Source of the DNA: a virus
Taxonomy: Duplodnaviria > Heunggongvirae > Uroviricota > Caudoviricetes
Length of the DNA: 64,000 bases
Reading direction: 5' to 3' (one strand)
Virus record (IMG/VR): IMGVR_UViG_3300011008_000003
Shown: positions 8,496-44,195 of the stretch, one piece after another
How positions within the stretch are numbered: the first letter of the stretch is position 1
Layout of the letters: each line of letters opens with the position of its first letter
The notes under the pieces: generated by a model
Told to the model about the DNA's origin: nothing
What the model saw: the letters and a program-made list of their open reading frames with translations, nothing else
Databases searched by the model: none
Position numbers and translations under genes: made by a program

Positions 8496-9686
8496 TTAAA
8501 ATGCCGCCTTGAAGTTATATACTGGCTTGATAATCTTTTCGATAGAGCAAGTAGGTTCAATATTCGTAATGATTTCCTGCATCGGCTTGTATGCCATAGG
8601 AGACTCATCAATCGTCGCAGAAGACACACAGGACGTGAAAATTCCCTTCATAGCATCTTTATATTCTGACATGGAAATGGAGTTCTTAGCGTCCGCTCTG
8701 GTCATTAAACGGCCTGCACCGTGAGGAGCGCTGTAGTTCCAGTCTTCATTTCCCTTACCGACACAAATCAAAGAGCCATCACGCATATTCATCGGAATAA
8801 TAACACGTTCACCAGCCTGTGCAGAAATAGAACCCTTACGAAGAATCATATTCTTAAGGTCGATATAGTTATGAATAGTTTCAAACTTTTCGACAACCTT
8901 GAAACCCATTTCCTTGACAATCACATCGAGCATTGCGGCACGGTTCATAACGGCAAACTGCTGAACAATTTCCATGTCATGCAGATAACCCTGCATGTGT
9001 TCGCCAGTAAGATATGAAAGATTCTTAGGAACAGAGAAATGGTCATAATCCTTCATAAGTTCCTTAATTTCCGCATCGGTCTTTCCCTGATTCTTATACT
9101 TGGAAATTTCAGCGCCGCGAATGGCTGTCAGGTCGGCACAATCCTTAATTGCAAGATTCTGCCAGTATTCACAAGTAGCGACACCCAAATGACGAGAACC
9201 GGAATGAATAACTACATAGAATGCACCATCGTCGTCTTTATCGACCTCAATGAAATGATTGCCTCCGCCGAGGCTTCCAATCGACAGAAGTTCTTCACGA
9301 CGAACGTCAGCGATAAGTTCTTCAAACTTTTCGTCAAATTCATTACCGAAACGGTGACGGTTAGTTCGATGTTCCTTACCGGACGGAATCTTGGTCTTGA
9401 TTACCTTGTCGAGCTTACCGAATTCGATAAACTTATCTTTAAGCTTCGCAACCAACATTCCGCAACCAATATCAACACCGACAAGATTAGGCACAACCTT
9501 ATCCGTAATAGTCATGGTAGTTCCGACCGTGCAATCCTTTCCGGCATGTACGTCAGGCATAATACGAACCTTAACGTCTTTCGCCCAGCATTGACACATC
9601 ATATTCAAAATCTGTGAATATGCCGCATTATCAATATTGTCCGTATAGACACGGGCTGTATTATATTTTCCTTGAATGTCAAGCAT
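8496..9686 (-). CDS. rtcB: RtcB RNA ligase
   Basis: MPDVHAG, VGVDIGCG, GSLGGGNHFIE, HSGSR, HNY, SAPHGAGR, DESPMAYK. Confidence 0.95.
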   Translation of the reverse strand: MLDIQGKYNTARVYTDNIDNAAYSQILNMMCQCWAKDVKVRIMPDVHAGKDCTVGTTMTITDKVVPNLVGVDIGCGMLVAKLKDKFIEFGKLDKVIKTKIPSGKEHRTNRHRFGNEFDEKFEELIADVRREELLSIGSLGGGNHFIEVDKDDDGAFYVVIHSGSRHLGVATCEYWQNLAIKDCADLTAIRGAEISKYKNQGKTDAEIKELMKDYDHFSVPKNLSYLTGEHMQGYLHDMEIVQQFAVMNRAAMLDVIVKEMGFKVVEKFETIHNYIDLKNMILRKGSISAQAGERVIIPMNMRDGSLICVGKGNEDWNYSAPHGAGRLMTRADAKNSISMSEYKDAMKGIFTSCVSSATIDESPMAYKPMQEIITNIEPTCSIEKIIKPVYNFKAAF

Positions 9687-11423: not shown

Positions 11424-12107
11424 TTAATTTGATAATTGTTGTATTCTAATAGTTTGTTTTAATCTATAAATTTCAGTTTCTCTGTCTTCTAATGAAAGTT
11501 TTTGCCAATCAGACCAACGAATTCTTTTTAATAATCTCCATCCTAAATTAATTAAATTTTCAGTACGTATTTTATCATGTAAAATACCAGTTTTTGTATA
11601 ATGCTGTTCACCATCTACTTCAATATATACTTTAATATCAGGCCAAGCATAATCTAAAAAATATCTATCTACATGATATTGTTTTTCCGCATTAGTAAAT
11701 ATTTCATTAAAATATTGTTCTGCATATGATTTCCGTTTTTCTCGTGCTGTTGTATATCTCGATATATTTTTATAATTTTCTTTTTGAACAATAGAAATTT
11801 GTTTACGTGTTTCAATCGTTTGATAATGTTTATATGCGGCTTCTGGTAATGTGCCATTTAAATAATGTTCATGTCTAGTTTCTGTATATTTAGCAACACG
11901 TAAATCATTATCTTTTGTTAATCCTTTATTCCATGCTTTATGTCCTTTTCTGGGTTTATATTTTCCTTTTTCACGATTTTCATGTAATATTTTTAAACAT
12001 CTATCATCTTTATTAGGATTTAATTTACACAAACGTTCATGATTTCGTAATGAATTTGCATTTTTGCATATTTTATTGCAATATTTACATACATAATCTT
12101 GTTTCAT
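11424..12107 (-). mobile_element. Free-standing homing-type endonuclease (Zn finger plus DUF559/Vsr-like nuclease) inside tRNA operon 1
   Basis: CKYC..HERLC, WNKGLTK, YFLDYAW...IEVDGEQH; AT-rich, inserted between tRNAs. Confidence 0.7.
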
Positions 12108-12139: not shown

Positions 12140-12221
12140 TAGTCCACGGGGTTGGAGTTGAACCAACACATAGAACCTTATAAGAGCCCCTGCCTGATAC
12201 CAATCGGCTTATTGCCCGTGG
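12140..12221 (-). tRNA. tRNA-Ile(UAU)
   Basis: Loop CT-TAT-AA. Confidence 0.75.
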
Positions 12222-12225
12222 ATAA

Positions 12226-12312: not shown

Positions 12313-12395
12313 TAGTACACTAGGCGGGCTTCGAACCCGCATTTGCAGCTCCAGTTACGGCTAACGGATTAGAAGTCCGACCCGACTACTAGTGT
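12313..12395 (-). tRNA. Atypical tRNA-Arg(UCU), reduced D arm and long variable arm
   Basis: Loop CT-TCT-AA, T arm and acceptor stem intact. Confidence 0.6.
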
Positions 12396-12704: not shown

Positions 12705-12796
12705 TTTCTTTAACCTTTATAATTATATATAACAGTTGTTTGTTAATTTTCGCTTTTTAATATAGTAAATTTTTCTCTAGTTGTAAACCCTAAAAA

Positions 12797-13033: not shown

Positions 13034-13240
13034 AAAAAGTCCCGTAATTAATCATACAAATTAATACGGGACATGATTTATATCACACAAGCACGCCGAC
13101 GTCACCCTATCCGTAGAGGTCGAGTCCGTGAATCTCAGCGAAGGGTGTAACCCGTCCTTCGCCGCACTATTATACACACGTAATTGCTATCCCTAGCCGG
13201 CACCTTACTGGACCGTGTACATGCTTATGTTTTATGTCTT
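13034..13240 (-). ncRNA. Candidate stand-alone sRNA of about 200 nt
   Basis: Own promoter (TTTACA..TACTAT), closing helix, internal hairpins, terminator GTCCCGTA..TACGGGAC plus T tract, no ORF. Confidence 0.5.
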
Positions 13241-13317
13241 TAATATAGTAAAATAGAAAAGACTTGTAAACCCCCTTTATATAAAAAATATGAGGCGATA
13301 TTTATCGTCTCATATCT

Positions 13318-14024: not shown

Positions 14025-14033
14025 ATAATTTTT

Positions 14034-14173
14034 TAGTAGGCGGCCTTGGATTCGAACCCCGGCAAGTCTCTCGTCCTAAACTTCGTGTTTTCTCGCGACC
14101 TAGCACGAAGGTCTGAGAGCGTTCTCTCTGCTGTGATTGCTGATGCAATCCCGTTCCGTTTGAACTATCGCCC
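14034..14173 (-). ncRNA. tRNA-like RNA with large multi-hairpin insert and no clear anticodon
   Basis: Acceptor-like ends GGGCG/CGCCT and GGTTCGAATCC T-loop, about 140 nt. Confidence 0.5.
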
Positions 14174-14398
14174 ATAATAAACTTTGTTTCGGTTTTTACC
14201 GAAGATTCCGAAAAACTCCAGCGGACTGCCGCCTTTTTACCTCTAGCTTTAAACACGTCCACTGTTTTAAGGCCGCAACCTTTTTCGCACAGTGTCTCAA
14301 GCGAACTAATTGGTAGCAGATTGCCCTCTCCTCAGTCATTCCTAGGAAACCTTGGAGGACAAGAATAATCCAATGATGATCAGTCATTATCTGCCTTT

Positions 14399-14505: not shown

Positions 14506-14592
14506 TATGACAGCTGTTGGACTCGAACCAACGAAAGCCCGTTAGGGCGGGAGGGTTACAGCCTCCAGGAATTGCCGCTATCCGAAACTGCC
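14506..14592 (-). tRNA. tRNA-Tyr(GUA)
   Basis: Loop CT-GTA-AC. Confidence 0.85.
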
Positions 14593-14669
14593 GAATTTCT
14601 CGGACTTTCACCGAGCGTTTATCCATTCTATCCTATACAGCGTTTGCCTCAAGGGACTGGACAATCAGT

Positions 14670-14702
14670 AAAAAAGAAAAGCCGCAGATTGCGCTGCGAC
14701 TT
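14670..14702 (-). terminator. Attenuator terminator, tRNA operon 2
   Basis: AAGTCGCAG-CGCAAT-CTGCGGCTT followed by T-rich tract. Confidence 0.8.
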
Positions 14703-14727
14703 AATAAAGTTTTATAATAAAACCCTA

Positions 14728-14814
14728 CTAGTCGCGACACCCCATATAATACATGGAATAACCGAACATCGAGCTCGGAACTAATGACCATGAATATGAA
14801 TAAGAGTGCAACAT
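14728..14814 (-). CDS. Leader peptide 2, MLHSYSYSWSLVPSSMFGYSMYYMGCRD
   Basis: AAGGA RBS; rich in Ser(TCN), Tyr, Met. Confidence 0.85.
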   Translation of the reverse strand: MLHSYSYSWSLVPSSMFGYSMYYMGCRD

Positions 14815-14922
14815 AATTTTTCCTTTTATATTATATATAAAAACTTTTTTATGTTTTTCGTTTTTACATACGTAAATATAGTAAATATTTTTCTCTTTGT
14901 AAACCCCTAAAATAAAAATTTT

Positions 14923-15455: not shown

Positions 15456-16469
15456 TTATTTTTCAAATTTTCTTCTAAAATATTTTCCTTCAAAATCTTT
15501 TTTAAAACGTTCTAAGGTGTCTTCAATAATTCTTTTTGTATAACCTGTTTCTTTTTCAACTTTTCCAACCCATCCAAATTTTTGTAAATCAATACCACAA
15601 TTTAAAATAAGATTCTTACGTTCTATCCAAATTTCTTCTGATATAATATTTGGATTACCTTTACCTGATTTATCTTTTGGATATAATGATTCTTTTTTAA
15701 TTTTTGGTTTCTTTTTTAATTTTCTTATTTTTATATTAGGATATTGTTCTTGAAGTATTTTTATTTCTTCTAAATTTTTTAATTTATCTACTTTATATAA
15801 TAAATTATCTTTTTCTGAATAACGCCAAAATTCACAGTTAAGTTTTTCGATAATATATGCTTGCCTACACTTATCACGTAATATTCCTTTTATTTGTGTA
15901 TGTTTAGATTGTTTTTCATCATATTCAAAAACAATATTTAACACTTTATCATAACCATCGACATGATAAGGTCCTACTTTATATTCGCCGCCATTCATAG
16001 CGTGCTGTAAATGCCAATTATTTTTTATATTTAGTTCATCAATAAATTTACATGCTTTTTCATTATAATTACATTGGCAATTAATTATATTTTTACGTTC
16101 CAGCATTTTTTCTGCAAGTTTAGCCCTAGATTCAGGTGTATGTGGTTTACTAATACCTTTTAATTCACCAGAAGCGTATTTTCTTTTTATTGTTTCTGCA
16201 GATTTACGTTTGCTGTCAATATTAATTGTTTTTCCTAATGAATCTTTTGGTAATTTAGTTTTTTCTTCGCAATCCTTATAATGCTTATATAATTTTCGTC
16301 GTGAATAAAATATTTGATTGCAATATTGGCAAGTCCATTCTTTATATTTTGTTTTAAAACATTTTTCCGGATGCATTATATGCATATGTTCATATAATGA
16401 CATTTTTGTATCAAATACATTATTACAATAACTACATTTCCATTTATTTATTTTTATATTCGAACCCAT
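15456..16469 (-). mobile_element. Free-standing homing-type endonuclease (two Zn fingers, NUMOD3-like, PD-(D/E)XK-like)
   Basis: CSYC..H..H, CQYC..H..C, KPHTPESRAKL, VDGYD...VFEYDE; AT-rich. Confidence 0.7.
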
Positions 16470-17476: not shown

Positions 17477-17584
17477 TTCTTTAATCCTTTATATTATATA
17501 TAAAAAGTTTTTTGTGTTTTTTGTTTTTACATAGGTAAATATAGTAAAAGTTTTTCCTTTTGTAAACCCTAAAAAATAATTTTT

Positions 17585-22155: not shown

Positions 22156-22208
22156 TTTCTTAACCTTTATATTATATATAAAAAATTTTTTCCTGTTTTT
22201 GCAAAATA

Positions 22209-22327
22209 AACAGCGGGCAGTAACTGGCAACAAGAGTAGGACTCGAACCTACGACCTTTCACCTTGCGGTGAGTGCTCTAACCAACTGAGCTACCTCGTT
22301 AATTTTATAGGAACCGCGTATGCTGTT
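22209..22327 (-). ncRNA. GUUCCUAU scaffold enclosing a complete anticodon-less tRNA mimic (22225-22300)
   Basis: D arm, T arm, acceptor with encoded CCA; anticodon loop replaced by a GCAA tetraloop. Confidence 0.65.
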
Positions 22328-31185: not shown

Positions 31186-31262
31186 TATTACCAGGCTCGG
31201 AATCGAACCGAGAATCTTTTGTCCTTCCGAACAAACGCTCTTACCATTTGAGCTAACCCAGC
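31186..31262 (-). tRNA. Atypical tRNA, anticodon undetermined (8-nt loop or GGAA tetraloop)
   Basis: Normal D and T arms; TTTGT-TCGGAAGG-ACAAA. Confidence 0.55.
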
Positions 31263-31263
31263 A

Positions 31264-31504: not shown

Positions 31505-31552
31505 AAAAATAAAACTGACCTTACTCATCTCAACGCGTACTATTGACTTTCG

Positions 31553-31627
31553 GTTAGCGCATACGGGATTCGAACCCGTGACCAGCGGCCTTCACACCGC
31601 TTGTTCTACCGCCGAACAAAATGCGTT
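31553..31627 (-). tRNA. tRNA-Phe(GAA), divergent
   Basis: GTGAAG in anticodon loop, T arm GGTTCGAATCC. Confidence 0.6.
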
Positions 31628-31635
31628 ATCAGTTT

Positions 31636-32218: not shown

Positions 32219-32398
32219 TTTGTTACCTTTTATATTATATATAAAAATGTTTTTCCTGTTTTCGCAAAATAGATTCGGCCAATGGACTCCATCCAAAGTT
32301 TTACGTTAGCGCTGCACCGAATCATCTGATGCATCAGTTATGTTTAAAATATAGTAAAAAGTTTTTGGTTTGTCAACCCTCTTTTTAAAATATTTTTT

Positions 32399-36898: not shown

Positions 36899-36952
36899 TT
36901 TCTTATCTCTTTATATTATATATAAAAGTTTTTTCCTGTTTTTCGCAAAAAT

Positions 36953-43849: not shown

Positions 43850-44195
43850 TTCTCATCTTTTGGACAATGCGAGCGGACAGGTTAAGCCTAGTAGGTAATA
43901 CTAGACTTTCTTATTCACACTTTTGGCATAAAGCTTCGCGTGTCAGTCAGAAGGACTTATAGGTATGCTTACGGGTCGGTCATCCTGTACTCCGGCTATA
44001 TCATACCAGGCCATGGCGGCTAAGTGTACGGTTTGCTAGACCGTACTTCGATAATCGGTTCGTCACCCGATACGAAACCTTACATACCGAGTCAGTGATA
44101 TACCTCGATTCTGGGTATATGACGGCTCACCCTCTACCGATAGTTCCATTGGGTTGGTCTTCGTTCCGAGGAATAAGTCTTTACGATGTCGAATC
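43850..44195 (-). ncRNA. Structured leader or ncRNA candidate of about 340 nt
   Basis: GC-richer, ORF-free, multi-hairpin stretch between promoter and gene. Confidence 0.45.

Follow-up and report, generated by a model that had tools for sequence, protein, structure and literature searches.

A 28-codon reading frame on the minus strand of an uncultured, T4-like giant phage from ruminant guts, together with the terminator behind it, probably forms a ribosome-mediated leader-peptide transcription attenuator that gates an operon of phage tRNA genes and subjects tRNA supply to negative feedback. This unit, which we call attenuator 2, is one of six of like build in the 64,000-nt stretch of DNA that we analyzed ("the window"); each stands before its own tRNA array, and together they cover almost all tRNAs of the window. 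The first-pass annotation had read attenuator 2 as a sensor of Ser(UCN), Tyr, and Met decoding. That reading gains support from the codon enrichment of the leader, the match between the leader and its own array, the predicted switch fold, the design kept in orthologues, and the co-variation of leader codons with tRNA content, all of which are computational lines of evidence. We further infer that the ORF is translated, that control runs in the direction set out below, and that the quantity sensed is usable tRNA, e.g., after loss or cleavage of host tRNAs.

The window encodes T4-type proteins, namely a gp15 tail-sheath stabilizer, a UvsX/RecA homologue, and an RtcB RNA ligase. ARAGORN finds 52 tRNA genes in it, 52 of 52 on the minus strand, and Rfam adds 2. 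No match to the region was found among 50,697 phage records by megablast, nor was a close isolate found among sequenced phages; the gp15-like protein shares no more than 29% identity with those of cyanophage, Caulobacter, and other T4-like phages. The related phages that we compared range in size from 165 to 424 kb and include two complete IMG/VR genomes with terminal repeats (G001 and G002; 416 and 424 kb). Near-identical DNA contigs and RNA-library contigs come from sheep and bovine gut samples. When the 18-nt pattern of the AU-rich box described below was used to search IMG/VR, most matches were chance ones and the true relatives amounted to four contigs; the conserved tRNA-Tyr worked better as a search pattern.

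Anatomy of attenuator 2

The features of attenuator 2 and of the surrounding region are listed in Table 1. The promoter is of a type that also stands before the other leaders, and it is kept in the relatives G001 and G003. Between the promoter and the ORF lies the AU-rich box, which is near-identical (TTTTATATATAATATAAAA) and directly 5′ of the Shine-Dalgarno site in every leader of the window. Matches to it number 9 in the window, against 0.33 expected, and the clearer ones precede leaders. The box may enhance translation at all leaders alike, or it may serve as the operator of a factor that acts on all of them, e.g., a RegA-like repressor. Its palindromic form and its near-identity at all leaders suggest that one trans-acting factor or one translation signal serves them all, and a protein or RNA factor might therefore control termination through the box or the leader RNA, with the ORF incidental. 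A common factor, however, cannot explain why the codons of each leader match, and co-vary with, the leader's own array (see below), and we consider control of this kind very improbable. The box may instead be a second layer of control beside the ribosome-based one.

Table 1. Features of attenuator 2, its tRNA array, and the surrounding region (positions in the window)
Feature	Positions	Strand	Remarks
Promoter, sigma-70-like	14875-14903	minus	TTTACA-17 nt-TATATT; 10/12 matches; preceded by TTTTAGGGG
Palindromic AU-rich box	14823-14840	minus	TTATATATAATATAAAAG; directly 5′ of Shine-Dalgarno site
AU-rich boxes of the window	14823-14840, 17486-17503, 22164-22181, 32227-32244, 36908-36925, about 12718-12735	minus	
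Shine-Dalgarno site	14821-14825	minus	AAGGA, 6 nt before ATG
Leader ORF	14814-14728	minus	28 codons + TAG (14730-14728); MLHSYSYSWSLVPSSMFGYSMYYMGCRD
Two small hairpins inside leader ORF	14778-14762 and 14757-14741	minus	no overlap with antiterminator
Antiterminator hairpin (predicted)	14691-14740	minus	~20 bp
Intrinsic terminator	14668-14703	minus	AAGUCGCAG, loop CGCAAU, CUGCGGCUU, then UUCUUUUUU; hairpin -12 kcal/mol
Terminator core	14702-14679		9-bp hairpin, 5 G-C pairs; U-run tail TTCTTTTTTA
Conserved structured RNA	14593-14667	minus	~75 nt, two helices; between terminator and tRNA-Tyr
tRNA-Tyr(GUA), two genes	14592-14508, 14488-14401	minus	first genes under the proposed control
tRNA-like stretch	14030-14233	minus	~200 nt; just upstream of CAU_a
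CAU_a, tRNA(CAU)	14024-13938	minus	87 nt, initiator-like
CAU_b, tRNA(CAU)	13764-13690	minus	75 nt, elongator type
tRNA-Ser(AGA), tRNA-Ser(UGA)	13506-13423, 13412-13320	minus	array end
Promoter, next after array 2	13270-13242		
Structured RNA with own terminator	13040-13270	minus	~200 nt
Small ORF	about 13019-12800		
tRNA-Arg(UCU), tRNA-Ile(UAU)	12315-12395, about 12140-12225	minus	long extra arm in tRNA-Arg(UCU)
RtcB RNA ligase and two zinc-finger, endonuclease-like ORFs	8496-9686, 11424-12107, 15456-16469	minus	
tRNA-like genes with abnormal anticodon loops	22225-22300, 31188-31263, 31552-31628	minus	ARAGORN; 2- or 4-nt "anticodons"
Canonical initiator-like tRNA	33696-33625		
Rfam cow-rumen-2 motif	43948-44052	minus	103 bits, E = 8e-19

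The AAGGA site and the ATG are kept in all orthologues of leader 2. Counted on the minus strand, the ORF holds seven Ser codons (TCT, three TCA, TCG, TCC, and one AGC; i.e., six TCN), five Tyr codons (all TAT), and four ATG codons including the start, exactly as the first-pass annotation had counted them. All of the downstream tRNA genes that it had named are likewise present: two for Tyr(GUA), two with a CAU anticodon, and one each for Ser(AGA) and Ser(UGA). By simple wobble rules for codon-anticodon matching, 14 of the 27 post-start codons are cognate to these tRNAs (six Ser UCN, five Tyr, three Met), compared to a background of 12% of codons in the long ORFs of the phage (binomial P = 4.8e-7). 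The cognate codons are dispersed over codons 4-24. The other 13 of the 27 codons are non-cognate to the array, which counts against the attenuator reading. The two small hairpins predicted within the ORF are possible pause sites for RNA polymerase.

The putative switch consists of two hairpins that compete for the same RNA. The terminator has an equivalent in all orthologues of leader 2. The 5′ arm of the predicted antiterminator (GUGU.GCGACUAGUAGGG) spans the last codons of the leader and its stop codon, and the 3′ arm contains the 5′ arm of the terminator, AAGUCGC. An earlier proposal, that GCGACT at the end of the ORF pairs with AGTCGC of the terminator 5′ arm, is confirmed by the folding analysis, in which this pairing is the core of the ~20-bp antiterminator. 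Indeed, the antiterminator is the minimum-energy fold of the leader RNA (z = -5.5 and -5.1), and none of 200 shuffled sequences folds as well. Pairing between the terminator arm and the stop-proximal region is a more modest control, being matched in 8 of 200 shuffles for the window and in up to 26 of 200 for relatives. Antiterminator and terminator are predicted in silico to be mutually exclusive, because both compete for the terminator 5′ arm. The stop codon lies inside the antiterminator arm in five of the six attenuators of the window. For leader 2, no anti-antiterminator (1:2 type) is predicted, and the two competing hairpins are the only ones.

Between the terminator and the first tRNA-Tyr lies a conserved structured RNA, which is part of the read-through transcript. 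Its consensus fold shows compensatory changes in eight relatives, many of them in the outer helix; the core reads CCCUUGAGRC...GUUGUAUAGG, and a second hairpin has a conserved UGAAAGU loop. The element is found in most relatives and is absent from G003. No strong promoter was found between the terminator and tRNA-Tyr in the window, where the sole candidate (9/12 matches) lies inside the structured element. Rfam yielded no match for the element and no support for a T-box or preQ1-type match in either the leader or the element. The Trp_leader, His_leader, Leu_leader, Thr_leader, and Phe_leader families had no match in the window at gathering thresholds, and a search of positions 14560-14920 up to E = 10 returned nothing relevant.

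RNA data were available as assembled contigs from four gut metatranscriptome runs (sheep and bovine). One contig of 180 nt spans exactly 14850-14671; it begins past the promoter and stops where the U-run stops. Two longer contigs (1536 and 970 nt) run across the leader and the terminator into the tRNAs. In three of the four runs, there is no cover upstream of about 14877, so that cover starts just downstream of the promoter. These contigs give a weak hint that terminated and read-through RNAs both exist; the hint is weak because assembled contigs prove neither the starts, the ends, nor the levels of transcripts and may include DNA, and stretches that they leave uncovered carry no information.

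The tRNAs of array 2 include two with a CAU anticodon, and the first-pass annotation had suggested, from the Met enrichment of the leader, that these are Met rather than Ile2. This holds for CAU_a, and in weaker form for CAU_b. CAU_a has a C1/U72 mismatch, a CGCAGGG acceptor, and an unusually long variable arm; an acceptor stem CGCGGG...CCCGCUA with a 1:72 mismatch is common to CAU_a and the canonical initiator-like tRNA of the window. CAU_a is thus initiator-like and, therefore, of the Met family. CAU_b is probably the elongator Met tRNA, because the att2 leaders have no AUA codon, AUA codons are found in leader 1, whose array holds tRNA-Ile(UAU), and the window has no other candidate for an elongator Met tRNA. 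Relatives with a single CAU tRNA keep the CAU_b type. An Ile2 identity for CAU_b is nevertheless compatible with its sequence. In a BLAST comparison with E. coli, the best match of CAU_b was a weak one to an ileX-type tRNA-Ile(CAU) (79.7% over 59 nt; E = 1e-3), which is driven by shared words in the D- and T-arms; tRNA-Met did not seed. A TilS-like domain (PF01171) was not found in the complete relatives G001 and G002, and a host enzyme could still carry out the modification.

Two other RNAs near array 2 deserve mention. The tRNA-like stretch next to CAU_a starts with GGCGGCA and ends with a T-arm-like GGGGTTCGAATCC..GGCCGCC; it is covered by RNA-library contigs and may be an aberrant or intron-bearing tRNA-like RNA. 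The next promoter after array 2 precedes a structured RNA with a terminator of its own and no match to any Rfam family, which is followed by a small ORF; RNA-library contigs cover this structured RNA.

Leader codons and tRNA content across units and relatives

The codons of all six leaders follow the tRNAs behind them. In leader 1, these are codons for Gln, Lys(AAA), Ile(AUA), and Arg(AGA), before an array of Gln, Lys(UUU), Arg(UCU), and Ile(UAU) tRNAs. Leader 3 has Leu, Ser(AGY), Trp, and Cys codons, and its array holds Trp, six Leu, Cys, and Ser(GCU) tRNAs; leader 4 has Asp, His, Lys(AAG), Arg(CGN), and Gly codons before Asp, Arg(ACG), Lys(CUU), Gly, and His tRNAs. The two remaining leaders, rich in Glu/Ala/Phe/Val/Ile and in Asn/Thr/Pro codons, stand before arrays of Glu, Ala, Phe, Val, and Ile tRNAs and of Asn, Thr, and Pro tRNAs, respectively. 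In a 6 × 6 table of leaders against arrays, each leader scores best on its own array, and the actual pairing comes out on top among 720 permutations. It also ranks first in the four related contigs, among 120, 120, 120, and 6 permutations. Altogether, the window and these contigs provide 24 leader-array units, and in 24 of 24 the leader fits its own array best.

The match extends to isoacceptors. Six of the seven Ser codons of leader 2 are UCN, before tRNA-Ser(AGA/UGA), and leader 3 uses only AGY, before tRNA-Ser(GCU) (Fisher P = 0.015). All four Lys codons of leader 4 are AAG, and its array has tRNA-Lys(CUU). Leader 1 has AGA and AUA codons, and these fit tRNA-Arg(UCU) and tRNA-Ile(UAU), two tRNAs that default ARAGORN settings missed.

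In AT-rich DNA, short ORFs and hairpins arise often, and a scan for terminator-like sites in the 12.5-kb region returned 8.6 chance sites in shuffled sequence. A random short ORF that happens to share codons with the tRNA genes behind an ordinary terminator is therefore conceivable in principle. Against this stand the binomial P value given above, the fit of six of six leaders to their own arrays, and the recurrence of the match in relatives, where it co-varies with tRNA content, and we give coincidence practically no credence.

Co-variation was examined in nine attenuator-2 leader-array pairs with differing tRNA content and eight distinct leader peptides. In the window and in the G002 type, the array holds two Tyr, two CAU, Ser(AGA), and Ser(UGA) tRNAs, and the leader has three internal AUG codons, zero to one Cys codon, and no CAG. 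The array of G003 adds Cys and Gln(CUG) tRNAs and has one CAU tRNA; its leader has four Cys codons, three CAG, and one AUG. Arrays that also hold Ile(GAU) (G001, L126, L128, and L141) follow leaders with three to four AUU/AUC codons. The array of L146 consists of Tyr, Asp, and Met tRNAs and is the sole one without Ser tRNAs; the leader has three Asp codons and one UCN. We considered whether this leader is a hybrid that also serves an Ala/Glu array, and rejected the idea, as that array has its own promoter and leader. For Cys(GCA), Gln(CUG), Ile(GAU), and Asp(GUC), presence of the tRNA in the array goes with three to four cognate codons in the leader and absence with zero to two, so that the two ranges do not overlap, although the rows are related, non-independent genomes and amount to few events. 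Among the att2 orthologues, the leader has three internal AUG codons where the array holds two CAU tRNAs, and one AUG where it holds one. The Leu leader behaves in the same way, with Cys and CAG codons only where Cys and Gln(CUG) tRNAs sit in that array.

The switch itself is also conserved. When the RNA is cut before the terminator 3′ arm and folded, the terminator 5′ arm pairs with the stop-codon segment in seven of seven distinct orthologues. The arms differ by lineage (GCGAC/GUCGC, GCGGC/GUCGC, GUGACAC/GUGUCAC, and GUGAC/GUCAC), as do the stop codons; for L146, the pairing of GCGGCG with CGUCGC was read by eye from the sequence. These statements rest on per-sequence folds; column-wise covariation on a MAFFT alignment was dropped, two lineages being shifted in the arms.

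The orthologues also bear on the possibility that the ORF and its terminator are an independent small gene, encoding a micro-protein or a small RNA. In that case, other promoters or unregulated read-through would supply the tRNAs, and the codon match would be non-regulatory. In favor of such a gene, close relatives share parts of the peptide (SSMFGYS.YYM.G in the window and G002), a promoter-like site follows the terminator in G002-type relatives, and the 180-nt contig from the RNA libraries matches just the leader unit. However, orthologous peptides diverge freely while their composition tracks the tRNA content of the array, and the stop codon stays in the antiterminator arm in all orthologues despite differing arms and stop codons. 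In addition, one genome carries six distinct leaders, each matching its own array, and the window lacks a strong promoter between the terminator and tRNA-Tyr. We therefore regard a small gene as quite improbable and retain the attenuator as the preferred reading.

Some lineages depart from the standard arrangement. L112 and L118 (G002-type) carry an inserted promoter-like TTTACAA-N17-TATATT between the terminator and tRNA-Tyr, and have a degenerate promoter before the leader, which suggests that the gate is bypassed or rewired in this lineage. The leader at L121:4260-4359, also present in L122 and L124 (three samples; one contig of 411 kb), has an in-frame TAA at codon 9 (MTHQLYTY*CSSICGC...); L134, L145, and L147 have an intact version of this leader without the TAA. 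The TAA leader is either a natural always-on variant or has a recoded or suppressed stop; no suppressor tRNA that would read the TAA was found in that locus. Because of the promoter-like insert and the in-frame TAA, the gate is neither universal nor immutable.

Proposed mechanism and what the gate would sense

In the mechanism that we propose, RNA polymerase would transcribe from the TTTACA/TATATT promoter, and a ribosome would load onto the leader. With fast decoding, the ribosome would arrive at the UAG before polymerase has finished the ~50 nt that follow. Positioned on the stop codon, the ribosome would cover GCGACUAG, the antiterminator 5′ arm; the terminator would then form, and transcription would stop at the U-run before the tRNAs. 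The location of the stop codon within the antiterminator arm is the basis for this step, because a ribosome positioned there would mask the antiterminator and permit termination. If decoding were slow at one or more of the 14 codons for Ser(UCN), Tyr, or Met, the ribosome would be late, the stronger antiterminator would form first, and read-through would yield the two tRNA-Tyr, the two tRNA(CAU), tRNA-Ser(AGA), and tRNA-Ser(UGA). This output would relieve the slow decoding, and the unit would thus be a negative-feedback controller of those tRNA species.

Several features bear on how well this mechanism fits. Since no anti-antiterminator is predicted, an untranslated leader should read through, unlike that of trp, and tight coupling of ribosome and polymerase must therefore be assumed. 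The wide spread of the regulatory codons is easier to reconcile with a timer that integrates decoding speed than with a single stall site. Further points count against the model: (i) a ribosome stalled at Tyr22, Tyr23, or Met24 might mask the nearby antiterminator arm, as a terminating ribosome would; (ii) the G002-type promoter-like site after the terminator can let the gate be bypassed in some lineages; (iii) the leader has an in-frame TAA in three related contigs.

The same switch could also sense amino-acid starvation, i.e., the charging of tRNA-Ser, tRNA-Tyr, and tRNA-Met, instead of how much tRNA is present or whether it is intact. Stalling attenuators such as those of trp and his respond to the level of charged tRNA, so starvation would also give read-through, and the anatomy of leader and antiterminator fits starvation sensing and tRNA sensing alike. 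Feedback would be pointless in that case, however, as extra tRNA relieves no amino-acid shortage. Moreover, the match is at the level of isoacceptors and codon boxes (UCN versus AGY, AAG versus AAA, and CAG with Gln(CUG)) and tracks the downstream tRNA genes; it therefore fits the sensing of tRNA species, and we judge starvation sensing unlikely.

As to why a phage would sense its tRNA species, one possibility, which we put forward with some reserve, is that each array has a multivalent, isoacceptor-specific "decoding-speed timer" that senses failure of the host tRNA pool, e.g., through shut-off or anticodon nucleases, and supplies tRNAs on demand; the units would then be counter-defense sensors, to which the neighboring RtcB ligase adds repair. 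If this is correct, the units would represent a new regulatory class, in which attenuation responds to tRNA species and controls tRNA genes.

Relation to known systems

Leader-peptide attenuation is a textbook mechanism for amino-acid operons; the ilvGMEDA leader has Ile, Leu, and Val codons, and the thr leader has Thr and Ile codons. Like attenuator 2, these systems have a short translated leader with several kinds of regulatory codon and a terminator opposed to a ribosome-dependent antiterminator, with slow decoding leading to read-through. Features typical of the trpL/hisL/ilvL class, namely a promoter-proximal ORF, enrichment of cognate codons, a terminator, and an exclusive antiterminator, are all found in attenuator 2 in silico; the class controls genes for biosynthesis or aminoacyl-tRNA synthetases, whereas six tRNA genes lie behind the terminator here. 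In contrast to ilvL and thrL, attenuator 2 would thus control tRNA genes rather than biosynthetic enzymes, and its product would act directly on the step that is sensed. It also differs from them in having dispersed rather than clustered codons, only two hairpins, and a stop codon in the antiterminator arm, and in being phage-encoded, present in six parallel copies, and without similarity to the Rfam leader families.

Two further cellular systems are informative. The pheST operon of E. coli, with its pheM leader, is likewise a leader-peptide attenuator of a component of the translation machinery that is specific to the amino acid of the leader; it is cellular, however, and involves one amino acid and an aminoacyl-tRNA synthetase, whereas attenuator 2 would act on the tRNAs themselves, for at least three amino acids. 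T-box elements, like attenuator 2, couple the state of a specific tRNA to terminator read-through by a choice between terminator and antiterminator upstream of translation-related genes. A T-box, however, needs no ribosome and contacts the uncharged tRNA itself by means of a specifier codon and the T-box sequence, whereas attenuator 2 has a translatable ORF with a Shine-Dalgarno site. A full-text literature search found no description of leader-peptide attenuation of tRNA genes or of phage tRNA clusters.

If the proposed mechanism is correct, phages match their tRNA sets to demand one tRNA species at a time. This bears on why large phages carry many tRNAs, for which compensation of codon usage, replacement of degraded host tRNAs, and escape from anticodon nucleases are candidate reasons. 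The leaders would be natural reporters of the codons that the phage monitors, and, where a tRNA is ambiguous or odd, they would predict its decoding identity, as for the CAU tRNAs here. The design would amount to a compact, multi-input kinetic sensor of decoding speed, with potential use in synthetic biology.

The tRNA clusters of T4-like and other large phages likewise combine clustered tRNA genes with homing-endonuclease-like ORFs and a nearby RtcB RNA ligase; in contrast to those clusters, this T4-like myovirus splits its >52 tRNAs into separately gated arrays. In the window, the RtcB gene adjoins the tRNA region, and the two zinc-finger endonuclease-like ORFs, which lie within or between tRNA arrays, are likely homing endonucleases. 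One of the tRNA-like genes with abnormal anticodon loops sits between a promoter and leader 4, and similar oddities occur in the relatives G002 and G004. Outside the tRNA region, the strong match to the Rfam cow-rumen-2 motif places this orphan motif in a giant T4-like rumen phage.
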